Source of the DNA: Thermodesulfobacteriota bacterium
GTDB taxonomy: Bacteria; Desulfobacterota_D; UBA1144; Nemesobacterales; JAJCZQ01
Assembly: GCA_965215275.1 (NCBI GenBank)
Contig: OZ244044.1
Location: 1,797,561 to 1,861,560, forward strand
Reading direction: 5' to 3'
Length of the DNA stretch: 64,000 bases
Shown: piece after piece, positions 14,305 to 53,472 of the stretch
Layout: the number at the start of each line of letters is the position of its first letter
Numbering within the stretch: the stretch's first letter is position 1
Made by a program: the position numbers and the translations under genes
Notes under the pieces: generated by a model
What the model was told of the DNA's origin: nothing
The model's database searches: none
Seen by the model: only the letters and a program-made list of their open reading frames with translations

Positions 14305-15057
14305 TTGTATCCTAATCTCATTGAATTCAGTTCCTTTCATATCTCATCCTTTTACGTAATGGTGCTGGCAGCCTCTCTTGTTGCTTACTACGTATGTGAG
14401 AAAGACCTGGTCAGAAGAGGGAAAGATAAAAGTACTGCTGATATAGTGCTGATCGCCAGCTTTATAGGCGGGATGGTGGGTGCAAAGCTGCTTTTTTTGT
14501 ATCAGAATGTGGCGTTTTCAGAGGTGGTCCAGGACCCGCTCCGCTATTTTTCGTCGGGCTATACGTTCTTTGGCGGGTTTATCGGGGCTTTACTTATGCT
14601 CTATCTGGTGTCTGTATATAAAAAGGTGAGTTTCTGGTACCTGACCGATATTTCTTCAGCTCCGGTCATTATTGCTTATGGAGTAGGCAGGATCGGGTGC
14701 TTACTCGCTGGAGATGATTACGGGGTACCAACGGATGTGCCTTGGGCAATGTCGTTCCCGAACGGTTCTCCTCCTACTCTGGAAAATGTCCATCCAACCC
14801 AGATCTATGATTCGATCAGTATGCTTATCGTGTTTTACTTCCTGTGGAACCTGAAGAGCAGAGGTCGTGCGACCGGTTTCCTTACTTCACTGACCTTTAT
14901 TGTACTTGGTACACAGAGGTTCTTGATGGAGTTTATAAGGAACACCACACCGAGTTCCGTTTATGGATTATCCCAGGCGCAGCTGATAGCCCTGTCTTTG
15001 GTATGTGCAGGTATAATAAAAATGGGAATTATATACTTAACTATGCAAGATAAATGA
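14305..15057 (+). CDS. lgt: prolipoprotein diacylglyceryl transferase
   Basis: 250 aa membrane protein; the Lgt signature G..GRIGCLLAGDDYG is present. Confidence 0.85.
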   Translation: MYPNLIEFSSFHISSFYVMVLAASLVAYYVCEKDLVRRGKDKSTADIVLIASFIGGMVGAKLLFLYQNVAFSEVVQDPLRYFSSGYTFFGGFIGALLMLYLVSVYKKVSFWYLTDISSAPVIIAYGVGRIGCLLAGDDYGVPTDVPWAMSFPNGSPPTLENVHPTQIYDSISMLIVFYFLWNLKSRGRATGFLTSLTFIVLGTQRFLMEFIRNTTPSSVYGLSQAQLIALSLVCAGIIKMGIIYLTMQDK

Positions 15058-15072
15058 CATTAGCATTGTAAA

Positions 15073-15735
15073 TTATACACGAATGGTTTTTTTCAATTCT
15101 CCGTTATACCACTCCCCGCCCATTTCCTTTTTGATATAATTTATTTTAAAATCAATATTATCTTTTAAATCATCTATCATAAGATCTTTATTATTTTTAT
15201 ATACATCTATATCGTTTTGTCCTACGATCTCACCCATGTCTGGACACAACACGCAAAATTCACCATTTCTATTAGAATCAGAAAAAGAATATATTCTGTA
15301 TTTACCTTTATATGTTTCAATCTGTTTTAAATCCTTCATATAATAATCTGGATTATATTTTTCATTTATCATGTAATCACTCCTCCTTTTACTTTCATAT
15401 TTACGGGTAACTCCTTCTTTTTTATCAAGTTCTTTTATTCTATCTAATTGTAATTCAAATTGATTTATCTGATAATCCTTCGCATCGTCCCTTTCTCTGC
15501 CAGACACAGTAAGTACTCCAACCTTTTTACCATATTCTGCATGCTTAAATTTCCTATGACCTCCAGTTCCTTTTATCTTCACATAACCAGCTTTTTTTAT
15601 TCGCTTAATTAACTCCCGAACAGATATAACTGTTTTTCCTTCATAAATATGCTCAACCAATGTTGGTTTACGCTCATAAATCTGTTGAATTCTTGTTAGT
15701 TTATTATCTTCTTCCATATTTTTTCCTTTTATCAA
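15073..15735 (-). CDS. HicA/YcfA-like domain protein with a ~140-aa C-terminal extension of unknown function
   Basis: Residues ~40-100 (VRELIKRIKKAGYVKIKGTGGHRKFKHAEYGKKVGVLTVSGRE) resemble the HicA toxin fold (G-S/G-H-x-x-f-x-H). The remainder has no recognised domain. Confidence 0.45.
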   Translation of the reverse strand: MIKGKNMEEDNKLTRIQQIYERKPTLVEHIYEGKTVISVRELIKRIKKAGYVKIKGTGGHRKFKHAEYGKKVGVLTVSGRERDDAKDYQINQFELQLDRIKELDKKEGVTRKYESKRRSDYMINEKYNPDYYMKDLKQIETYKGKYRIYSFSDSNRNGEFCVLCPDMGEIVGQNDIDVYKNNKDLMIDDLKDNIDFKINYIKKEMGGEWYNGELKKTIRV

Positions 15736-15800
15736 TTTTCTATATTATTCAATAACCTTTATCCTTATATGTAATAGAACAAATTAAAATCAATTATATT

Positions 15801-17075
15801 TTATTTACAATAACCAAGTCTTTTGTTTTCTTTTATAAGTCCTGATAATGTGAATTTGTTGCTCTTCAATTTATTACAGGGTCCACAAAGTAAAATTCTG
15901 TTCGATATATGGTTTAGTCCACCATCAGAACGTGGAGTGTTATGATCTAATTCAAGATATCTCGGGTCATCAAATTGACGGTTGCAACCCTGACATTTGC
16001 TCTCCTCTTGATCTAACAGATATTTAAGCATTTCTGCTCGAGTCATTTTATGACCTTTAGGTTCATCTATCTTTAATTTGGTTTTGAGAAAAGGAACTGC
16101 CTCTTCACCTTTATCTGTTCTAACTGGTAAATCTGAAGTCCAAGTTATATTTTTTCTAAAAAGCTGATGCTGTGTTCCAGAGTATCCTTTTTTCCTACCT
16201 TTTACTATTAAGCCTTGCTTTTCAAACAAACCAAGAATTACATCCTTAGCCTTATCCCATATATCAATTCCTACCCACTGCCTGTTTAGTTTTTCAGAAG
16301 CTACTAATGTAGTTCCACATCCACAAAAAGGGTCTAATACTATATCTCCTTCATTAGAAGATGCTTTTATTATACGTTCATATAATGCTGGAGGTTTTTG
16401 TGTAGGATAACCTATTCGTTCTTTTGCTACAGCATTTAAACTATCAATTATCCAAGTGTCATGACATATTCTTCCTCTATCTAAATAATACTTATACTCT
16501 TTGCTGTCTATTTTTCTTATACGATATGCTCTACCATCTTTATCTACTTTATCAAAATGGTTGGATTTTTCCTCTCGGTATGGTTCATATTGTGGATTAA
16601 ATATCTTATTTTTGGTTTTACTATAAAACAGTATTATATCATGTTTTTTACTGAACGACTTCTTACTTGCCCCGCCAGTATTGTATTTCCACACTATTTC
16701 ATTAACAAAGTTTTTATATCCAAAAATAGCGTCCATAATGGCTTTTATATAATGACTTGCTGTTGGATCACAGTGCAGATAAATACTTCCATCTTTTCGT
16801 AGTATCCTTTTCATCTCTAATAAACGAACAGCCATGAAACAGACAAACGCACCCATTCCGTCCGAATGAGCATTTCTTGCACTTTCTATAGCTTCCATGA
16901 GTTCTGGAAAATCATCAGTTATTTTATCAACCCACTCTTGATGAACATCCCTGTCCCAAGACCATCTGTCCTGAAAAGAAGCACCAGAAGATAAACTATC
17001 AGGTGTAGCATGAAAATCTCTATTTTTGTTAAAAGGAGGGTCAGTTGCAATTAAATGAACAGATTCGCTGTTCAT
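15801..17075 (-). CDS. beta-class DNA N6-adenine/N4-cytosine methyltransferase fused to a C-terminal HNH zinc-finger nuclease. As annotated this is an N-truncated form; the full-length ORF would start at 17155 if the G9 tract were G10
   Basis: Motif IV DPPF sits at residues 12-15 and motif I LDPFCGCGTT follows it. C-terminus CQGCN...DHN...H...N...CGPCN is an HNH motif. The in-frame upstream sequence encodes the conserved LFHGDNLDFLRA segment but has no start codon in this frame. Confidence 0.8.
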   Translation of the reverse strand: MNSESVHLIATDPPFNKNRDFHATPDSLSSGASFQDRWSWDRDVHQEWVDKITDDFPELMEAIESARNAHSDGMGAFVCFMAVRLLEMKRILRKDGSIYLHCDPTASHYIKAIMDAIFGYKNFVNEIVWKYNTGGASKKSFSKKHDIILFYSKTKNKIFNPQYEPYREEKSNHFDKVDKDGRAYRIRKIDSKEYKYYLDRGRICHDTWIIDSLNAVAKERIGYPTQKPPALYERIIKASSNEGDIVLDPFCGCGTTLVASEKLNRQWVGIDIWDKAKDVILGLFEKQGLIVKGRKKGYSGTQHQLFRKNITWTSDLPVRTDKGEEAVPFLKTKLKIDEPKGHKMTRAEMLKYLLDQEESKCQGCNRQFDDPRYLELDHNTPRSDGGLNHISNRILLCGPCNKLKSNKFTLSGLIKENKRLGYCK

Positions 17076-17133
17076 TGCTCGGAGAAAATCTAAATTGTCT
17101 CCGTGAAATAAAGTGCGATTCTGCCAATTTGAT

Positions 17134-17142
17134 GGGGGGGGG
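17134..17142. repeat. G9 homopolymer (C9 on the coding strand) in the 5' region of the methyltransferase-HNH gene; candidate phase-variation tract
   Basis: With G10 the ATG at 17155 reads MKASTPPPSNWQNRTLFHGDNLDFLRAMNSESVHLIATDPPF in one frame. With G9 that frame stops after ~20 codons. Confidence 0.7.
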
Positions 17143-17167
17143 TGGAGGCTTTCATAGTCGTTTGTTC

Positions 17168-17380
17168 TTAGCGTTTACGCTTTTTGTCTGATCTATTTTT
17201 ATTCAATAACCGAACTTTATCGTTTTCTTTCTTTACTTGATCAGATTGCTTTCTTGGAGTAAATAAAGCACGAGCTATTTGCTCTGGTGAAACATCAACA
17301 GGCGGTAGTAGATAAGCATGCCTCTTGGTCATTGCATCCTCCTTAACAACATTATTACATACTAAATAACCATTAAGCAA
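17168..17380 (-). CDS. small basic protein (70 aa), translationally coupled to the transposase
   Basis: 8-bp overlap with the upstream transposase ORF; Lys/Arg-rich C-terminus. Confidence 0.4.
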   Translation of the reverse strand: MLNGYLVCNNVVKEDAMTKRHAYLLPPVDVSPEQIARALFTPRKQSDQVKKENDKVRLLNKNRSDKKRKR

Positions 17381-18317
17381 TTAAATCTTCATACTTCAAA
17401 CGTTTTCCGATCATTGAAGCGTATATCTCTTGCATCATTTTTTCAGTATCGTATTTCCGCAAGTTGTGCCGATTGGCAAATTCATTAACGTATCTATGTA
17501 GATGTTTAGGACTAATATGGTGAAAGGTCCCGTAATACCCTCTTTTTAGTAAAGCCCAGAAAGATTCTACACCGTTAATATGAGCTTGTTTGTTTACAAA
17601 TTCTCCAACGCTGTGTTTTACCGTCTTATGATTAAAACTCATACCTTCATAGCTCTTATAATCGTCTGTATAAACCGTTGAATTACCATCTACATGTTTA
17701 CCGATAAATTCTTGCAAACTTGATTTGTCGGTATTATTAACAACAGATGCACTTATATTGTTTGTGTTTCTATCTTTTACACCAACTACAGCCGTCTTGC
17801 CAACGACCCCACGACCTGCTTTTAGCTTTTTGCTTGAATGTTTATTTTGTTCAAGACCACCAAAATATGCTTCATCCACTTCTACGGGACCTGACATCTT
17901 ACCACCCATATTCATCCAAGCCTCACGTAACCTTTGAGCCATGAAATAAGCAGATTTCTGTGTTATTTTTAAATCTCTGTAAAGTTTCATGCTGGATACA
18001 CCTTTTAATGAAGTGGACCATAAGAAAATAGCAATAACCCACTTTTGATAACTGATCTTCGATCTTTCCATTAAACTACCAATACGAACACTGAAATTGC
18101 GTCTGCAATCACCACACCAATATGGCATAGGTTTTCCAGAAGGAACTTTACTCACTTTTACACTACCGCATCTAGGACAATGTAAATGCTTGTTATCTTT
18201 TCCCCAACGTTGCTCTTCAAACCACTGTTCTGCAACTTCATTATTAGGGAATTTCTTAAATAACTCTATAAGTGATATTCCTTTACGATAATGTTTTCCA
18301 GGTGCTTTATATGACAT
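17373..18317 (-). CDS. IS1595-family (ISXO2-like) DDE transposase
   Basis: N-terminal zinc ribbon HCPRCGS...CGDCRR, then an ISXO2-like DDE domain (VYTDDYKSYEG..., FHHISPKHLHRYVNEFA). Confidence 0.8.
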   Translation of the reverse strand: MSYKAPGKHYRKGISLIELFKKFPNNEVAEQWFEEQRWGKDNKHLHCPRCGSVKVSKVPSGKPMPYWCGDCRRNFSVRIGSLMERSKISYQKWVIAIFLWSTSLKGVSSMKLYRDLKITQKSAYFMAQRLREAWMNMGGKMSGPVEVDEAYFGGLEQNKHSSKKLKAGRGVVGKTAVVGVKDRNTNNISASVVNNTDKSSLQEFIGKHVDGNSTVYTDDYKSYEGMSFNHKTVKHSVGEFVNKQAHINGVESFWALLKRGYYGTFHHISPKHLHRYVNEFANRHNLRKYDTEKMMQEIYASMIGKRLKYEDLIA

Positions 18318-18450
18318 ACTATTTATCCTCTTGATTATTGATTTTATAGTATTATACTATCATACAAACCTTGCATAGTCAAGTATATAATTCCCATAAA
18401 AATAGTACTGATATCATCAGGAAAGAAAGAGGAAAGGGCAGGTTGATCAT

Positions 18451-45717: not shown

Positions 45718-46082
45718 TTTCTGATTTTTCCCAATACAACTTCTTATTACTATTATACTTTAAAAATACTCTGTCAGACAAGGATATTTCAAAATATACT
45801 GTGGATACCCGAACTGTACCATTATTCGGCAGTACTGCTTCCGGAGAAAAATTCGGAATGGATGGTCTTGAGATAACGATGTTCATTAGTGAATGGGCAG
45901 ACAAGGTCAGTTTATTAACTGACCGCTTATATAAGTTTCATTTTTAAGAACCGGCATTACTGCGTTGATCTTATCAATAAAGTTGTGTGTATGGAGATGT
46001 TTTCTGATGAGAAAGGCAGGTTTGCAGGTTTTATACATGGCAGAACGGTGATAGTTCGGGTTGAACCGGAGTTAGCGGTAAA

Positions 46083-46345
46083 GAAAAACAGTGTAAATAC
46101 AAGGGGCGTAGTCCCAATGTCGTTGTTGTATTTTGGATTTAATTCAAGGAAAGTCTGGAAAAGGGACTGCCAGATCTTGTGATAGAAAGTCTTACTTGAT
46201 ATGTTACTTTCGTGCTAAAAAGATCCGTTCTCCCATCATTGCTCCAAATTTTATGATCTCTTTATCCGAAAGGAATGTCTCTGGTGTAACAGTTTCCACG
46301 TGAAATCCAGCATCGCGTATTCTGTCTATGTAATCTTTTCCGCAT
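46083..46345. repeat. direct repeat copy 1 (3' end of the methyltransferase gene plus its downstream region)
   Basis: ~85% identical to 47213-47476 by eye, sharing AATGTCGTTGTTGTATTTTGGATTTAATTCAAGGAAA...TTACTTTCGTGCTAAAAAGATCCG. Confidence 0.7.
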
Positions 46346-46927
46346 AATCGGACATGAAGACATTCACCAAAGGTTTTGAGGCGTTCTTCAGGGTCAGTTA
46401 TTGATGGGTCCTCAAATGTTTTTTGAGTTAAGATCGGGACTAGTATTACAGCCATGCCGTCATCCTTTAATACTCTGTACAGTTCACTTATAGCTTTTTT
46501 ATCATCCTGAATATGTTCCAGTACATGACTGCAGATGATCAGATCGAAAGACCGGTCTGGATATCTGATGTTCGTTATATCCATTTCTACCATCACGTCC
46601 CGGTCACTTAGACCAGCGGATAAGTATCCTTTACCAAAATATTCCTTTAACTTTTGTGCAAGGCACACGGCTGGTGCGATATCAAGCACTTTGATAGATG
46701 GAATGGGGGGGGGGATATGTCTTTAAAAGGAAAAGGTATATCAAGCGATGTCTTTCATAGGAACCGCATGTCGGGCATTTAGCATTTTTACGACTGTTAA
46801 TGCGATTATTAATGGGAAGAAACTCTCTGGACGATCTTTTGCATACTGGGCAATACATTTCTTTTCCACAATGATAATATATTGCTTTTAGAACACTAAT
46901 GAAATATGTACGAATAAGGTGAAGCAT
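46204..46927 (-). CDS. zinc-ribbon + class I SAM-dependent methyltransferase (Methyltransf_11-like), interrupted by a G10 tract; current state frameshifted (OFF)
   Basis: N-terminal ORF (CPVC...CPTC) ends in ...LKTYPPPHSIYQSA* just after the tract. The C-terminal ORF carries the methyltransferase core (DLIICSHVLEHIQD). One fewer C would join the two frames. Confidence 0.7.
46705..46714. repeat. G10 homopolymer inside the methyltransferase coding region; candidate slipped-strand phase-variation tract
   Basis: GGAATGGGGGGGGGGATATG: the tract encodes PPP and shifts frame directly. Confidence 0.75.
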
Positions 46928-47212
46928 AGCCGTTCATTCAAAGTGATAATACATGGTGAAAAGGTAACTAAAATACCGATTTAATACAGATAATGGACCA
47001 TCTGATCAATGATGAGAAAAAAGGATACTATAGCTCAGTTCTGAATTTTTGCAATCAGGTCATTGCTGATAACGCCGTATGCTACCTCTTCCACAGGTTT
47101 TTATAGACCAGTCTTCTTTTAAAGGTATAGATCTGGTCTAGCATTTCCAGATTACGCCAAAGCTGAATACCTTACGAAGCTGGAAGAGTGCCAGAAGTCC
47201 AGTAAATACAAT

Positions 47213-47476
47213 GGTAAGGACCGTAGTTCCAATGTCGTTGTTGTATTTTGGATTTAATTCAAGGAAAATTTGGAAAAGGGACTGCCAGATCTTATGATGG
47301 AAAGTCTCACTTGATATGTTACTTTCGTGCTAAAAAGATCCGTGTTCCCTTAAATATTCCAAATTTTATGATTTTTTATCCGAAAGGAATATATCTGGTA
47401 TAATAGTTTCTATGTGAAATCTAGCATCGCATATCCTGTCTATATAATTTTCCCCGCATATCCGAAATTATTTCTT
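47213..47476. repeat. direct repeat copy 2 (decayed duplicate of the methyltransferase 3' end), abutting the GT2 start codon
   Basis: See copy 1; carries indels and substitutions. Confidence 0.7.
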
Positions 47477-48397
47477 ATGATAACAGTAGTAATCTGCACC
47501 TATAACAGAAGAAGTTATTTAAAGAAGGCAATAGATAGCATTATCAACCAAACCTTTGACCCTGACCTGTATGAACTGATCATAGTTGATAACAACTCTA
47601 CCGATGGAACAAAAGATTTTGTTTTAAACAATTACAGTCACTCCAGAGTAAAGGTAAGGTATTTGCATGAACCAAACCAGGGACTTTCACATTGTCGGAA
47701 TACGGGTCTTCGGAACGCAAGTTTTGAATATATAGCATATATTGACGATGATGGGATTGCTTATCCTGACTGGCTTGAAAATATGGCAAAAGGGATAAAG
47801 AATCAGAATGAGAAATTTGCTGGAATAACAGGTGCGATATTTCCTATATGGGAAATTCCACGACCAAGATGGCTTTTAGATTTAGATAGGTTGACTATGT
47901 TTTACTCAATATATTACCCTGACAAAAGGACTGTTATTGGTTACGGTTATGTTTTTGGCGGAAACATGGTGTGGAAAAAAAGTCTTTTAATAGAATGTGG
48001 TGGATTTAATACAAAATTAGGAAGAGTAAAAAACAATCTGATATCAGGAGAAGAAAGTCTTACTGCTGAGAAAATAGAAAAAAAAGGATATGAATTCATA
48101 TACGACCCAAAGATGAGAATAAAGCACCATATTCACAAATCCAGAATAAGTATAATGTGGTTAATTAAAAGATCTTTCTGGGGAGGTTATTCACGTATCG
48201 CAATGGAAAATATAAAAACAAAAAAAAGCATTTTAGCAAAGTTCATACAATCGTTTAAGGAGATTAAAAAAGCACTTTATAACCTTGGGTCAGTTCCTAA
48301 ATCCATTATATTTGAACCGAGGTATTATTTTTTGATTAAAATAGTTGACGCTGTAGATTCATTAGGAAGACTCTATGCTTTAGTAATAATAAAGTAA
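47477..48397 (+). CDS. family-2 glycosyltransferase (copy A; the ORF-track start at 47414 is probably an upstream extension)
   Basis: MITVVICTYNRRSYLKKAIDSIINQT...IVDNNSTDGT is the GT2 N-terminus. Close paralog of 51616-52542. Confidence 0.8.
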   Translation: MITVVICTYNRRSYLKKAIDSIINQTFDPDLYELIIVDNNSTDGTKDFVLNNYSHSRVKVRYLHEPNQGLSHCRNTGLRNASFEYIAYIDDDGIAYPDWLENMAKGIKNQNEKFAGITGAIFPIWEIPRPRWLLDLDRLTMFYSIYYPDKRTVIGYGYVFGGNMVWKKSLLIECGGFNTKLGRVKNNLISGEESLTAEKIEKKGYEFIYDPKMRIKHHIHKSRISIMWLIKRSFWGGYSRIAMENIKTKKSILAKFIQSFKEIKKALYNLGSVPKSIIFEPRYYFLIKIVDAVDSLGRLYALVIIK

Positions 48398-48439
48398 CCT
48401 TGCGTTTTTTCCAGTCAGTAAAAATATATCTATAGGCTT

Positions 48440-49267
48440 TGGTTTTATTACCTAATTCATTAAGAATAAAGTTGTTAACTTATACAAAAAACTAATTAAA
48501 TACTTCAGTATTTACGCCCACTCAAAGTGTTTTTCAATATGGTTTTAACCAATAATGCAATAAAAATACCCTCTCCCTCAATCCATTATCAGTCTGATTT
48601 CTGTTCCTTCATGTTGTAAAGGACTTCCAGTAATATTGTTTATATCATCGGTAATTAAAACTCAATAAATTGTCCTTTAGTTGTTAAGAGAGTATAAAAA
48701 ATTTTTGACCTGTTATCCATTAAGACTATCCCTGAAAATATATTGAACTTCCAGAAAAAGGGTATTACGATATGTTTTACCAAGGATAAGGATATTGGTC
48801 CTTACACAAAAATTATTTCAACCTTAACACTTTATCCCAGTGCTATAATCATCCCTGATCACATTATCTGCTCAAGATACAGAAATATGGTAAAAGAGAG
48901 TGAAAACTAACTTATACCGTATAACCATTAGACACTTAACTATTGGCTCGAAAACTGCAAATCAAAAATACATGAAATTAATTTGTTCTTTAATTCCGGG
49001 TTCGGAACTTTATTTTCACCCCAAAGCCTGCCAACTGTAACTGTAGATGAAAAGATCTTTACAGAATTAAAGTCCCTATGCGGATGATGTCTGGTTAAAC
49101 GCCATGAGACTATTGAATAACGTCAAAGTTAGTTACATAAAGACACCGCAGTATATCTATTTATACGGACATAAAAATAATAGTAAAGCACCTGACACTC
49201 TACATAGTATAAACATGAACAGAAAGCAAGTGTTTAACAAATATAATCTATACGAACGGATAAATTA
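48440..49267 (+). pseudogene. decayed paralog of the DXD-motif glycosyltransferase at 52558-53472
   Basis: Nucleotide-level similarity across the region, with multiple indels including a ~75-bp deletion spanning the DXD region. No intact ORF remains. Confidence 0.7.
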
Positions 49268-49286
49268 GTCTGTTATAGAGTGATTG

Positions 49287-50252
49287 TTATCGATAGCCAA
49301 ATAATGATCTGTATATTAACTTCTGCAGACCTTCAGGGAGAAATCTCTTGAACACATTAAACCATACCCAAGACATGATTCTGAATAACAGAAAACTTTG
49401 TAATCTTCTATGCTGGACTTCTAAATTATTATATTGGGTTTTCAAATCTCTATTTTCAACCCACCATCTTCTATTTTGGACTGTAGTACTATTAGTTTTC
49501 AGATGTTTTGCGGTCATAACCTTCACCCAATGTTTTTCATATAACTTTCTGTGTTTATTTATAATATAAGCATAATAGATATCTGATTTACTGATATTAC
49601 TCAAATACAATGAATTTTTATGTACTCTATAGTTAAATAAATATTCAGGTATTACTTTTATTTTCCATCCATCTTTAGCTATGTTTATCCAGTGCTCCCA
49701 GTCTTCATGATTCTTCAAATTTTCATCATACATCCCCACTTTAACGGATGCTTCTCGTCTGAAACAGGACGATGGTATTATATAACACCATGTTAATATC
49801 CTAACTAAACTCGTATTGCCTTTGCTATAACTACGCTTGTCAACAATATCTCCAAACATATTAAAAAAAGGAGCTACTATCCCAACATCTTTATAGTTTT
49901 CAAACACATTCCTTGCTTTCTCTAAATAGGTCGGTTCCAAATAATCATCCCCATCAAGACAACATATATATTCAGAGTCTGCCTTCTTTATACCTTCATT
50001 ACGAGCTGCTGAAACTCCTCTGTTTTTATCCAGTTTTATTAAGTGAACATTGTTTGAAATCTCATTCAGAACCTTGATCGTCTCAGGGTCGTCCGAGCGA
50101 TCATCAACTACTATCAATTGCACGTCCTGCAATGTTTGACCAAGTACCGAGTTAATTGCCTTCTTCAGCAATTTCCCTTTATTGTAAGAGGTAATTACTA
50201 CCGTGAACTCGTATACAGATAAACTTCTTGAATTATAACTGTTTCGTCCCAT
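49287..50252 (-). CDS. family-2 glycosyltransferase (copy A of the 53491-54408 paralog)
   Basis: FTVVITSYNKGKLLKKAINSVLGQT...VVDDRSDDPET...DGDDYLEP are GT2 motifs. ~85% aa identity to the paralog, with a 22-aa in-frame tandem insertion near the C-terminus. Confidence 0.8.
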   Translation of the reverse strand: MGRNSYNSRSLSVYEFTVVITSYNKGKLLKKAINSVLGQTLQDVQLIVVDDRSDDPETIKVLNEISNNVHLIKLDKNRGVSAARNEGIKKADSEYICCLDGDDYLEPTYLEKARNVFENYKDVGIVAPFFNMFGDIVDKRSYSKGNTSLVRILTWCYIIPSSCFRREASVKVGMYDENLKNHEDWEHWINIAKDGWKIKVIPEYLFNYRVHKNSLYLSNISKSDIYYAYIINKHRKLYEKHWVKVMTAKHLKTNSTTVQNRRWWVENRDLKTQYNNLEVQHRRLQSFLLFRIMSWVWFNVFKRFLPEGLQKLIYRSLFGYR

Positions 50253-51189
50253 GAGATTTTATAAAAAAATTTTTAACCTTCCTGTGTACCCAGTAAGTTA
50301 TTAATCTGTCTAAAAATAGGTTAAACTTTACTAAATATCCTTTATTTATTGGATTACTGTTCATTGTATAACTAAAACTAACTATAGATGGGTACTTCAG
50401 AGTTAATATATAAGATAAATGTCTATTCCTCTGTTTCTTTGATAATATATGTTTTAAATTATTATAGTAATTATGAAATAAAACTAATTCCGGATCATAA
50501 AGAAAAGAATCCTTGTCATATCCATAGAACTCAACCATTCTAAAACACAAAAATGTACCCTCGTGTCCCACCATACCATCCTCAAAACCTCCCACCTCAA
50601 TAAAATCCTTCCTCTTGAACATTGAGACACATTCAGCATTTATACAGCAAGGAATAACTTCATCTCCTAAATCATAATGACACGGTTCAATTCTAATCAA
50701 ACCGGTATGGATCTGTTTTACCTTACCTCTAATTGCCACTAATTTAGCGTCATTCATCAGAACTTGAACCTTATCAAACGCTATGTCCACGTCTTCAAGA
50801 TAACCATCGGCATCAACAAAAAAAATAACGGGTGCATTGCAGTATAAACTCCCTATGTTCCTTCCCGTTCCACATCCCACGTTTTTATTCATAACAATAT
50901 GCTTTAGGGAATAGGACCGTAACTTCTCTTTAGCTGGTTCGGATAGACCATTATCAACAACTACTATTTCATACGACCCTGATTTGGCACATGTTATAGA
51001 ACTCAACGCTCTGAATAATAACTCATCTTCATTATAAACAACCAGCAAAAAACTTATCCAGGGCTCTTGGATATCTTGCAAATTATATGAATTAACCTCT
51101 TCTATACTATCACTATACTTTTCTATTGAGAGCGGTGGCTTTTTATGCTCTAATTTTAAATCGAGATAATCCTTGAGGTTGTTTTTCAT
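50233..51189 (-). CDS. family-2 glycosyltransferase (singleton lying between the two duplicated blocks)
   Basis: SFLLVVYNEDELLFRALSSI...VVVDNGLSEP and a DAD-type motif in FFVDADGY. Confidence 0.7.
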   Translation of the reverse strand: MKNNLKDYLDLKLEHKKPPLSIEKYSDSIEEVNSYNLQDIQEPWISFLLVVYNEDELLFRALSSITCAKSGSYEIVVVDNGLSEPAKEKLRSYSLKHIVMNKNVGCGTGRNIGSLYCNAPVIFFVDADGYLEDVDIAFDKVQVLMNDAKLVAIRGKVKQIHTGLIRIEPCHYDLGDEVIPCCINAECVSMFKRKDFIEVGGFEDGMVGHEGTFLCFRMVEFYGYDKDSFLYDPELVLFHNYYNNLKHILSKKQRNRHLSYILTLKYPSIVSFSYTMNSNPINKGYLVKFNLFLDRLITYWVHRKVKNFFIKSHGTKQL

Positions 51190-51367
51190 TTTAACAAAGT
51201 CGGTGTATTGTTCTGCCTAACTGTAAATAGTGATAGTAATATCTGTATCCCAGAACAGTATGCATAATTATATATAAATCCTGAAAAGTACATTATGACG
51301 GTACAATTTCTACTTTTCATTTCAATCCCGTGGCAAACATGGTGTTTTTAGCTGAGAGAACAAAACT

Positions 51368-51550
51368 TTGTTTCATGGAGACAATTTAGATTTTGTACGA
51401 GCAATGAATAGTAATAGTGTAGATATAGTAAAAACAGACACACCTTTCAATAAAAGCAAAGACTTTTCTGCTGACAGAGCAGTATGGTTTCTGAAGCAAA
51501 GGTTTCAGTATAGATGGTCTTGGGATGACTCTGTTCATGAAAGGTGGTAA
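51368..51550 (+). pseudogene. N-terminal remnant (60 aa) of a beta-class DNA methyltransferase, homologous to the island methyltransferase at 15801-17155
   Basis: MFHGDNLDFVRAMNSNSVDIVKTDTPFNKSKDF...YRWSWDDSVHERW aligns with (L)FHGDNLDFLRAMNSESVHLIATDPPFNKNRDF...DRWSWDRDVHQEW. Confidence 0.7.
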
Positions 51551-51615
51551 GACAAGACCGCTGATAACTTTTCTATTATGTAAAGTTGCGTATATAGTTC
51601 CCTAATTTACTTCTT

Positions 51616-52542
51616 ATGATAACAGTAATAATTTGCACCTATAACAGAAGAAGTTATTTAAAGAAGGCAATAGATAGTATTATCAACCAAACCTTTGACC
51701 CTGACCTGTATGAACTGATCATAGTTGATAACAACTCTACCGATGGAACAAAAGATTTTGTTTTAAACAATTACAGTCACTCCAGAGTAAAGGTAAGGTA
51801 TTTGCATGAACCAAACCAAGGGCTTTCACATTGTAGGAATACGGGACTTCGGAACGCAAGTTTTGAATATATAGCATATATTGACGATGATGGGATTGCT
51901 TACTCTGACTGGCTTGAAAATATGGCAAAAGGAATAAAAGACCAGAATGAGAAATTTGCTGGAATAACAGGTGCGATATTTCCTATATGGGAAATTCCAC
52001 GTCCAAGGTGGCTTTTAGATAAGTGGCAGATTGCTATATATTACTCAATATATAAACACCGTGACAAAAGAATTGTTATTAGTCGAGGTGTCAAGATAGG
52101 TGTTTTTGGCGGAAACATGGTGTGGAAAAAAAGTCTTTTAATAGAATGTGGTGGATTTAATACAAAATTAGGAAGAGTAAAAAACAATCTGATATCAGGA
52201 GAAGAAAATTTTACTGCTGAGAGAATAAAAAATAAAGGATATGAATTCATATACGACCCGAAAATGAGAATAAAGCACCATATTCACAAATCCAGAATAA
52301 ATATAAAATGGTTAATTAAAAGAGCTTTCTGGGGAGGTTATTCACATATAGCAGCAGAAAATATAAAACAAAGCGTTTTAACAAAGTTCATACGATCGTT
52401 CAAGGAGATCATAAGAGCACTTTTTCACATTGGGTCAGTTCCTGCTATCATTATATTTAAACCAAGATATCATTTCCTGATTAACATAATTAACGCTGTA
52501 AATTCATCAGGAAGGATCTATGGTTTGTTGAGAATTAAGTAA
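51616..52542 (+). CDS. family-2 glycosyltransferase (copy B)
   Basis: 308 aa; first ~170 aa are near-identical to the 47477-48397 product. Confidence 0.85.
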   Translation: MITVIICTYNRRSYLKKAIDSIINQTFDPDLYELIIVDNNSTDGTKDFVLNNYSHSRVKVRYLHEPNQGLSHCRNTGLRNASFEYIAYIDDDGIAYSDWLENMAKGIKDQNEKFAGITGAIFPIWEIPRPRWLLDKWQIAIYYSIYKHRDKRIVISRGVKIGVFGGNMVWKKSLLIECGGFNTKLGRVKNNLISGEENFTAERIKNKGYEFIYDPKMRIKHHIHKSRINIKWLIKRAFWGGYSHIAAENIKQSVLTKFIRSFKEIIRALFHIGSVPAIIIFKPRYHFLINIINAVNSSGRIYGLLRIK

Positions 52543-52557
52543 TCTTGGTTTTAACCT

Positions 52558-53472
52558 ATGTTCATGGAGAATAAAGTTGCTAACTTATTTAAAAGACTAA
52601 TTAAACACTTTAGTACCTATGTCCACTTAAAGTTTTTAAATATGTTTTCAACCAATAAGGCAGTAGCCAATATACCTTCTTCAATCCCACCCATTATTAT
52701 CAGCCTGACCTCTATCCCTTCACGTTTTAAAGAACTTCCAATAGTGCTTGAAAGTTTATGCCATCAGTCAGTAAAACCCGATAAAATTATCCTCTGGCTG
52801 TCAAAAGAGTATAAAAATAAAAAGTTTGGTCATTTGTCCATGAAAACTATCCCTGAAAATATACTGAACTTTCAGAAAAGGGGTATTACAATACGTTTTA
52901 CGCAGGACATCGGGCCTTACACAAAAATCATTCCAACCCTGAAACTTTATCCCAATGCCGTTATCATAACCGTCGATGACGACCTTATGTATAAACCAGA
53001 CCTGGTAAAGTATTTATATGAAAAACACCGGCAATTACCTGATCATATTATCTGCTCAAGATACAGAAATATGGTCAAAAAGAATGAAAACGAACTTATA
53101 CCTTATAACAATTGGGAACTCAACTGCTGGCTTGAAAACTGCAAATCAAAAATACATGAAACTAATTCGTTCTTTAATTCCGGATTCGGAACTTTATTTC
53201 CACCTCAGAGTCTGCCAACTGTAACTGCAGATGAAAAGATCTTTACAGAATTAAGTCCCTATGCGGATGATGTTTGGTTAAACGCCATGAGATTACTGAA
53301 CAACGTCAAGGTCAGTTGCATAAAAAAGCCGCAGTATATCTATTTATACGGACATAAAAATAATAGCAAAGCACCCGACACTCTACGTAGTATAAACATG
53401 AACAGAAAGCAAAACGATATTCAGTTAAAGCAAGTATTTGACAGATATGATCTATACGAACGGATAAATTAG
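52558..53472 (+). CDS. putative glycosyltransferase with a DXD motif (intact copy)
   Basis: 304 aa; VIITVDDDLMY and a capsule/LPS-type sugar-transferase-like pattern. Intact counterpart of the pseudogene at 48440-49267. Confidence 0.6.
   Translation: MFMENKVANLFKRLIKHFSTYVHLKFLNMFSTNKAVANIPSSIPPIIISLTSIPSRFKELPIVLESLCHQSVKPDKIILWLSKEYKNKKFGHLSMKTIPENILNFQKRGITIRFTQDIGPYTKIIPTLKLYPNAVIITVDDDLMYKPDLVKYLYEKHRQLPDHIICSRYRNMVKKNENELIPYNNWELNCWLENCKSKIHETNSFFNSGFGTLFPPQSLPTVTADEKIFTELSPYADDVWLNAMRLLNNVKVSCIKKPQYIYLYGHKNNSKAPDTLRSINMNRKQNDIQLKQVFDRYDLYERIN

Follow-up and report, generated by a model that had tools for sequence, protein, structure and literature searches.

DNA methylases switched by repeats are well documented from Type III systems, from Type I systems and from one Type IIG system, mostly in pathogens, and Type II methylases with homopolymers are found in Helicobacter pylori. 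Simple repeats are carried by 17.4% of the Type III mod genes (phasevarions) in REBASE, and unit lengths that are not multiples of three have been noted as a signature of the phase-variable ones (PMC5909438). In Campylobacter jejuni a poly-G tract makes the Type IIG restriction-modification enzyme Cj0031c phase-variable (PMC4889913), and the DCM8/DAM3 (TA)n fusion of Metamycoplasma hominis is a Type II methyltransferase with a repeat tract (PMC10305163). Restriction-modification units that resemble transposons, bounded by terminal inverted repeats and 8-bp duplications of the target, have also been described (PMC2853133), and the statement in PMC3129680 that cites Siguier et al. (2009) concerns IS1595-family "transporter IS" (insertion sequence) elements with passenger genes. 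We report here on a gene with partial resemblance to each of these. It lies in a 64,000-nucleotide stretch of DNA, called the window from here on, from a Thermodesulfobacteriota bacterium (assembly GCA_965215275.1, contig OZ244044.1, positions 1,797,561 to 1,861,560), and it encodes a DNA methyltransferase fused to an HNH nuclease domain as a passenger of an IS1595-family transposon. A homopolymer just inside its 5' end makes the locus a well-supported candidate, judged from sequence, for a phase-variable switch.

The homopolymer is a run of nine G at 17134..17142, hence C9 on the minus strand, which is the coding strand. Across the start of the gene the minus strand reads ...TAA GAACAAACGACT ATG AAA GCC TCC A CCCCCCCCC ATC AAA TTG GCA G... 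The start codon of the full-length gene is the ATG at 17153..17155 (minus strand), and five codons further on comes C9, a putative slipped-strand switch that encodes proline codons just past the start. With nine C the ATG is one base out of frame with the rest of the gene. Its own frame gives MKASTPPHQIGRIALYFTETI and ends at a TAG (17090..17092, minus strand) after 21 codons, while the methyltransferase frame, ...YESLHPPPSNWQNRTLFHGDNLDFLRA followed by MNSESVHLIATDPPF (MNSE...), extends open across the tract as far upstream as a stop at about 17177-17175, with not a single ATG, GTG or TTG in that upstream stretch. One added C (C10) or two removed (C7) fuses the ATG to the 424-codon open reading frame (ORF) at 15801-17075, giving an intact ORF of 451 or 450 amino acids, respectively. 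The original prediction, made without database searches, had held that G9 sets the reading frame, that the only upstream ATG is out of frame and terminates after about 20 codons, that a tract of G10 would bring it into frame with the whole gene, and that the annotated start is an internal Met with an open frame but no start codon upstream. All of this agrees with what we find, C7 being an equivalent solution to C10.

Public annotation begins the gene at the internal Met, 17075, and so reports a 424-residue protein (P0001; 15801..17075, minus strand) with a methyltransferase, a variable central region and a C-terminal HNH domain. If that ORF were the real gene and its product a functional enzyme, the tract would be irrelevant. 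Immediately upstream, at 17076..17133 (minus strand), lies a coding segment, SNWQNRTLFHGDNLDFLRA, that has no start codon of its own. The corresponding sequence, PNWxNRTLFHGDNLxFLRAMNSESVxLIATDPPFNK, is kept in 115 of the 120 best homologues (59-75% identical, with both domains in all 120), most of which begin 2-5 residues before PNW. Its residues hardly vary, if at all, across an alignment of 35 sequences, and matches to the Type II methyltransferase profiles of PADLOC, like those to solved Mod structures of Type III enzymes (EcoP15I), begin at about residue 6-14. We also built an AlphaFold2 model from the exact window translation beginning inside the C tract (mean predicted local distance difference test score, pLDDT, 76; predicted template modelling score, pTM, 0.75). 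In this model TLFH forms a beta-strand and NLDFLRA a helix, at pLDDT 82-93 and both ahead of the internal Met, so a product begun at 17075 would be without this core strand and helix, contained in 22 residues that are nearly invariant in the family. The upstream segment had been proposed as genuine coding sequence, with alignment of the N-terminus to homologues as the check; its conservation, together with its modelled place in the methyltransferase core, shows that the FHGDNL segment belongs to the protein. In favor of the annotated start, four other homologues (L003, L001, L002 and P0098; L denotes a locus and P a protein) are likewise annotated from the equivalent Met, but the start of L003 is mis-called, with an in-frame ATG upstream, and the leaders of L001 and L002 are disrupted by a repeat. 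Inspection of the sequence ahead of Met 17075 revealed no ribosome-binding site. We regard a functional enzyme begun at 17075 as scarcely credible. Gene calls from the internal Met (P0001, P0002, P0075) would instead conceal the true N-terminus and, with it, the candidate switch.

That the gene encodes a DNA methyltransferase-HNH fusion, as first proposed, is upheld by matches above cut-off to Pfam models PF01555 (E=2.7e-48, 165 bits vs cut-off 26.7) and PF01844 (HNH; E=2.6e-9, 37.5 bits vs cut-off 21.4). Motif IV, DPPF, at residues 39-42 precedes motif I, DPFCGCG(TT), at 275-281, the order of a beta-class methyltransferase, and the HNH residues C388, C391, D404, H405, N406, N419, C424 and C427 are invariant in the 35 sequences. 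The best Foldseek matches are M.RsrI, M.MboIIA, M.BceJIV and CcrM (E about 1e-17), with EcoP15I Mod and Mbo45V Mod also among the structural matches. From the DPPF motif and these closest structures, the enzyme is likely an N6-adenine methyltransferase acting on a specific motif, and residues at about 158-246, the variable central part of the alignment, fall where the target-recognition region would be expected. Judging by domain content, the HNH domain most likely would cut or nick unmodified DNA, which would make the protein a self-contained restriction-modification enzyme. Nuclease and methyltransferase share one polypeptide, as in Type IIG/IIC enzymes, and do so in 120 of 120 best homologues. 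Two classifications were considered and rejected: the gene is not an MmeI/Cj0031-like Type IIG gene, because its domains and their order differ (a beta-class methyltransferase, then HNH), and not part of a Type III system, because none of the element's ORFs, which encode the transposase, a small protein, the methyltransferase-HNH and a HicA-domain protein, is res-like. PADLOC returned generic Type II and Type III methyltransferase models only, and no known defence system beyond restriction-modification. Structure comparisons found no solved chain with this architecture, and the literature searched held no description of the methyltransferase-HNH architecture, of its status as IS1595 cargo, or of its repeats.

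G/C runs of at least seven nucleotides occur only twice in the window, as the G9 at 17134-17142 and as a G10 at 46705-46714, the next longest run being six. From base composition, 0.10 runs of at least nine are expected per window, and the probability of two or more is 0.005, so the tract is unlikely to be a chance feature. It might still be a miscounted one. A single extra C gives a perfect ORF, as it would if the real tract were C10 and the gene intact, phase-variable or not, and homopolymers of at least nine are classic sites of length error on several sequencing platforms. We consider such an error of sequencing or assembly improbable. One T9 run and four A8 runs within ORFs of the window leave the frame intact, which argues against a general homopolymer error in this assembly, and the second of the two G/C tracts breaks the frame of its gene not only here but also in a relative whose assembly is independent.

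This second tract (C10 on its coding strand) splits a gene at 46204-46927, in a low-GC glycosyltransferase cluster, that encodes a zinc ribbon and an S-adenosylmethionine (SAM)-dependent methyltransferase; with C9 the two halves would be joined. In the close relative the tract is C8 (L170:3888-3895), again out of frame. Between the two genomes the 30 nt surrounding the tract are scrambled. In the 483 nt that follow there are six differences, of which five are synonymous and one replaces Ile with Val, a pattern that indicates purifying selection downstream of the tract. Both long G/C runs of the window thus stand early in methyltransferase genes and break their frames, which suggests that in this lineage G/C tracts serve as contingency sites. 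The second tract is likely a further contingency locus, one affecting surface-polysaccharide modification.

We scanned 84 methyltransferase-HNH loci, namely 80 from species-representative genomes, three from contigs reached through protein hits, and the window, counting as a repeat any G/C run of at least eight or any 4-10-nt unit repeated at least four times. The genome-collection loci (L004-L083) are among the matches listed, at no more than 65% identity, and form a sample biased by the search pattern. In the leader zone, defined as the 190 nt directly upstream of the conserved segment, 11 of the 84 loci (13%) have a repeat, compared with ten repeats in the other 586 kb of the scanned loci, a 40-fold enrichment (Poisson P=1e-14). 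Poly-C leaders are C8 in L001, C9 in the window, L029, L055 and L065, C11 in L036 and C15 in L074. The others are 8-mer arrays: AGCAAGCG x7 in L002, GAAGAGCA in at least six copies in L005, GTCCACCC x14 in L016 and GCCAGCGC x7 in L043. The four 8-mers are mutually unrelated, and a further locus found through protein matches, beyond the 84, has CAAG x7.8 (L168); the leader repeats have arisen independently. None of the unit lengths is a multiple of three. The same layout, an ATG, a leader of 4-18 codons, the repeat and then PNW, is seen in the window, L002, L016, L043, L055, L065 and L074. Copy number differs between relatives as well, GCAAGCGA being present in 3.5 copies in L166 and L167, reached like L168 through protein matches, vs 7.2 in L002, with proteins 80% identical. 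Since the same position is occupied by other frame-shifting repeats in relatives from many phyla, the C9 tract is most likely a reversible on/off switch.

The variety of these repeats bears on two competing accounts. In the first, already introduced, the tract length is an error of assembly; the frame is also broken in relatives whose repeats are 8-mers, a type not prone to miscounting, and in the closest homologue, L001, from an independent metagenome. In the second, RNA polymerase slippage on C9, or +1 ribosomal frameshifting, would recode the gene without any heritable change and give constitutively low expression. The gene does sit inside an IS, nine nucleotides is the length of the RNA-DNA hybrid, and IS elements, like other bacterial genes, make use of transcriptional slippage at long homopolymers, although the productive sites known are mostly runs of A or T. 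Relatives, however, hold 4-nt and 8-nt tandem repeats at this position, and slippage of this kind could not decode them, which points to a family-wide solution at the level of DNA. Nor is any frameshift-stimulating signal evident, although no search was aimed at such signals. We judge recoding to be very unlikely.

More serious is the possibility that a homopolymer frameshift killed the passenger gene permanently, leaving a pseudogene, now decaying, in which the tract has no switching role. The frame is broken here, in all genome loci of the same layout, and in L001, which at 79% nucleotide identity has a tract of C8 that is also out of frame. The lineage does lose such genes: the window contains, at 51368..51550 (plus strand), a decayed paralogous 5' remnant of a methyltransferase-HNH gene with an L001-type leader. 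This is the 60-residue remnant to which the original prediction had pointed; it is real, and it begins with TTG, the codon behind its apparent "M". On the other side, the 1275 nt beyond the tract read as one open frame in which all catalytic motifs are intact, and the insertion of the transposon is recent, as seen in a perfect 8-bp duplication and inverted repeats that agree at 25 of 26 positions. C9 is itself improbable, and it is placed in a non-conserved leader where other repeats are enriched 40-fold among relatives. Uninterrupted tracts have persisted across the 21% nucleotide divergence from L001, yet in the remnant, a truly dead copy, the position of the C tract has degenerated to CTTTTCATTTC, as would be expected if tracts stay uninterrupted only in genes that are still used. 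A fixed pseudogene therefore seems unlikely to us, if less so than a miscount or recoding. It is the repeats at the homologous position in relatives, and this contrast between kept and decayed tracts, that lend support to the candidate phase-variable switch first proposed from the window by itself.

Several observations weigh against a switch. All seven loci with a clear ATG-repeat layout, the window included, are OFF as assembled, which also fits inactivation; if one locus in three were ON, the chance of finding none in seven would be 0.06. Many of the compared metagenome-assembled genomes (MAGs) may be long-read assemblies in which homopolymer lengths are possibly wrong, a concern that leaves the 8-mer and 4-mer arrays unaffected. 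Inspection of the sequence ahead of ATG 17155 showed no obvious Shine-Dalgarno sequence. Finally, neither exact-protein look-up nor a tract-spanning DNA pattern with a variable gap, applied to metagenome contigs, found a near-identical locus that could reveal another tract length; a single-protein scan of metagenome contigs gave distant matches only, and the genome-contig matches listed reach no more than 65% identity.

Taking these points together, the best explanation, and a probable one in our judgment, is that the IS1595-borne methyltransferase-HNH gene is heritably and reversibly silent or active through its C9 tract. Translation from ATG 17155 would cross the tract after five codons and, with nine C, run in the wrong frame into the early stop, so that the gene as assembled is OFF; this frame relation is read directly from the DNA. 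Slipped-strand mispairing during replication would produce C10 or C7 and hence the 451- or 450-residue protein, complete with the conserved N-terminal strand and helix that the fold needs. We infer the slippage itself, its rate and its reversibility; reversible slippage is established for G/C tracts of about eight or more in Campylobacter, Helicobacter, Neisseria and Haemophilus. In the ON state a short motif, chosen by the variable central region, would be methylated, and the HNH domain would cut or nick unmodified DNA. In the OFF state the element could reside in an unmethylated genome without doing harm, and the switch could hedge between defence, self-damage and possible epigenetic effects.

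The gene belongs to a low-GC island (29-37% vs about 45%) that had been called foreign. It is indeed a discrete mobile unit of low GC content, and more exactly a 3372-bp IS1595-family transposon with passenger genes, at 15024-18395 between lgt and trkA. Its genes, all on the minus strand, run in the order transposase, small ORF, methyltransferase-HNH, HicA-domain protein. The terminal inverted repeats, 26 nt each, lie at 15024..15049 (left, GGGAATTATATACTTAACTATGCAAG) and 18370..18395 (right), and perfectly matching copies of an 8-bp target-site duplication, ATAAAAAT, flank them at 15016..15023 and 18396..18403. In a close relative (ENA ERZ21848999, L169), whose PurD falls in the same 90%-identity cluster as that of the window, lgt is followed directly by trkA with a single ATAAAAAT, which represents the empty site. 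Two Joint Genome Institute (JGI) contigs, L171 and L172, hold the end of a related IS, with homology that starts exactly at 18395. The transposase (17373..18317, minus strand) is a DDE enzyme of the IS1595 family with an N-terminal zinc ribbon (PF12762, E=2.8e-40; PF12760; NF033547, E=6.9e-54, 183 bits vs 75), and together with the inverted repeats, the 8-bp duplication and the empty site it identifies the element as an IS1595 transposon with passengers. Insertion took place inside the 3' end of lgt (14305-15057), where 11 residues from the inverted repeat, MGIIYLTMQDK, now stand in place of the last 13 of Lgt (IVLISSGKKEERAG in the relative). The sole promoter-like site upstream on the minus strand lies within the right inverted repeat, which makes co-transcription of the element's genes plausible. 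A viral origin was considered and rejected, only about four full-length relatives being found in viral contigs.

The association with IS1595 is not confined to the window. A transposase of this family, 35-55% identical to that of the window, adjoins the methyltransferase-HNH gene in 15 of 89 loci (L001-L089); a truncated one lies near L168, and L166 and L167 have, by eye, an apparent C-terminal transposase remnant. Compact units, in which inverted repeats enclose just the transposase and the methyltransferase-HNH gene, are found in L055 (Flavobacteriaceae), L067 and L023 (Dehalococcoidia) and L043, and their ends, GGGCTTATATACC, GGGATTTATACGG, GGGAGTTATAACAG and GGGGATTATGTCG, resemble the end GGGAATTATATAC of the window element. 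Linkage to the transposase is commoner in loci that bear a leader repeat (5/11) than in those that do not (10/73; Fisher P=0.02). A broader reading, which we offer tentatively and at somewhat less than even weight, is that of a cross-phyla IS1595 family with a methyltransferase-HNH passenger, potentially self-toxic and brought repeatedly under hypermutable 5' repeats (poly-C, CAAG, 8-mers), that would be silent during transposition or transfer and stochastically ON afterwards, with the control in L082 perhaps extending to the nuclease half only. In this locus, from a Gammaproteobacteria MAG (OZ241853.1), a G18 run (L082:4016-4033) is located in the linker between methyltransferase and HNH; in the assembly the methyltransferase portion stops about 20 codons past the run and HNH continues in another frame. 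The run could switch the nuclease half alone, or its length could be an assembly error.

Further repeats were seen around members of the family. Three loci from Chloroflexota, two of them from Phototrophicaceae and one from an Anaerolineae MAG (L029:2926-2934, L036:2924-2934, L059:2821-2835), share a different layout, with a tract of C9-C15 and then a conserved GAAT(A/G)(A/T)ATGTTCTA placed 150-280 nt upstream of the coding segment, and stop codons between. Here the tract may sit in a promoter or a separate leader rather than in the ORF. Other long runs, C9-C13 and G11-G12, occur in the flanks of family loci (L003:2028-2038, L074:5819-5831, L044:5120-5131, L050:6176-6186, L058:5355-5363, L076:6528-6590). 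These flanking repeats, which include a 7-mer x9 array and all lie outside the methyltransferase leader, may point to additional contingency genes within those islands.

Among the matches listed, genome-collection members of the methyltransferase-HNH family come almost entirely from MAGs, with taxa that include Dehalococcoidia, Phototrophicaceae, Nitrospira, Paracoccaceae, Ca. Poriferihabitaceae and one Nitrosopumilus archaeon; some of the genome names suggest marine sponge symbionts. At least six genomes (OZ241326.1, OY759511.1, OZ241849.1, OZ241910.1, OZ241999.1 and OY764157.1) have two copies each.

Of the remaining genes of the transposon, the small ORF lies between transposase and methyltransferase at 17168..17331 (minus strand), encodes 54 residues from an ATG preceded by an AAGGAGG ribosome-binding site, and ends 12 nt before ATG 17155; profile searches gave it no family match. 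The second passenger (15073..15735, minus strand) encodes a protein with a HicA toxin domain at residues 40-93 (PF07927, E=2.8e-7) and a C-terminal extension of about 120 residues that by eye resembles a HicB-like antitoxin domain. The protein could be a fused toxin-antitoxin that stabilises the transposon. Searches by tblastn found no match to the small ORF (open over 17168-17380) or to the HicA-domain protein beside other members of the methyltransferase-HNH family.

Elsewhere in the window, the low-GC polysaccharide region at 45800-52700 has been subject to duplication in recent times. Its glycosyltransferase paralogues (47462-48407 and 51601-52552) share 79-97% identity, a second copy of the SAM-dependent methyltransferase gene's 3' end (46101-46346) lies at 47216-47460, and a remnant is found just upstream of each glycosyltransferase copy: the SAM-methyltransferase 3' end in the first case and the methyltransferase-HNH 5' remnant in the second.

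If the window locus does switch, the principle of repeat-driven control would extend to an uncharacterised and very abundant beta-class methyltransferase-HNH architecture, and phase variation would be tied to transposon cargo, which suggests a means of entering unmethylated genomes without killing the host. The pattern would span many phyla and environmental metagenome-assembled genomes. Should the cross-phyla reading also be true, phase variation would serve a mobile element in free-living or symbiotic environmental bacteria, and not host-adapted pathogens alone.

The nearest functional analogue among described systems is Cj0031c. Both combine nuclease and methyltransferase in a single gene, with expression set by an intragenic G/C homopolymer there and, as we propose, here, and in both cases long G/C runs are few in the genome (here, the window) and concentrated in contingency genes. 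Cj0031 is a large Type IIG protein with an N-terminal PD-(D/E)XK nuclease and a gamma-class methyltransferase, and MmeI-like Type IIG enzymes add a C-terminal recognition domain. The predicted window protein, in contrast, has 451 residues, with the beta-class methyltransferase first and HNH at the C-terminus, and its gene is borne by an IS1595 transposon. The Type III mod genes are nearest in fold and in repeat statistics. They share the beta-class N6-adenine methyltransferase fold, the central variable recognition region, and repeats in the 5' coding region whose unit is not a multiple of three, at a similar frequency (our 11 of 84 loci), but the window element has no res gene or other helicase-nuclease partner, its nuclease being the fused HNH. 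Like the transposon-like restriction-modification units, the locus has a restriction-modification gene within 26-nt inverted repeats and an 8-bp duplication, with an empty site in a related genome. It differs from them in having an identifiable IS1595 transposase, in belonging to a unit of transposase and methyltransferase-HNH that recurs across phyla, and in a passenger that carries a frame-shifting repeat, a combination not found described in the literature searched. With the Type II methyltransferases of M. hominis and H. pylori it would share a dependence of full-length expression on repeat number, but those are from host-adapted pathogens, with repeats in the target-recognition region or elsewhere, no fused nuclease and no transposon. 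The principle is therefore a familiar one; what is new is the architecture of the enzyme, its transposon context, and the recurrence of the repeats across phyla.

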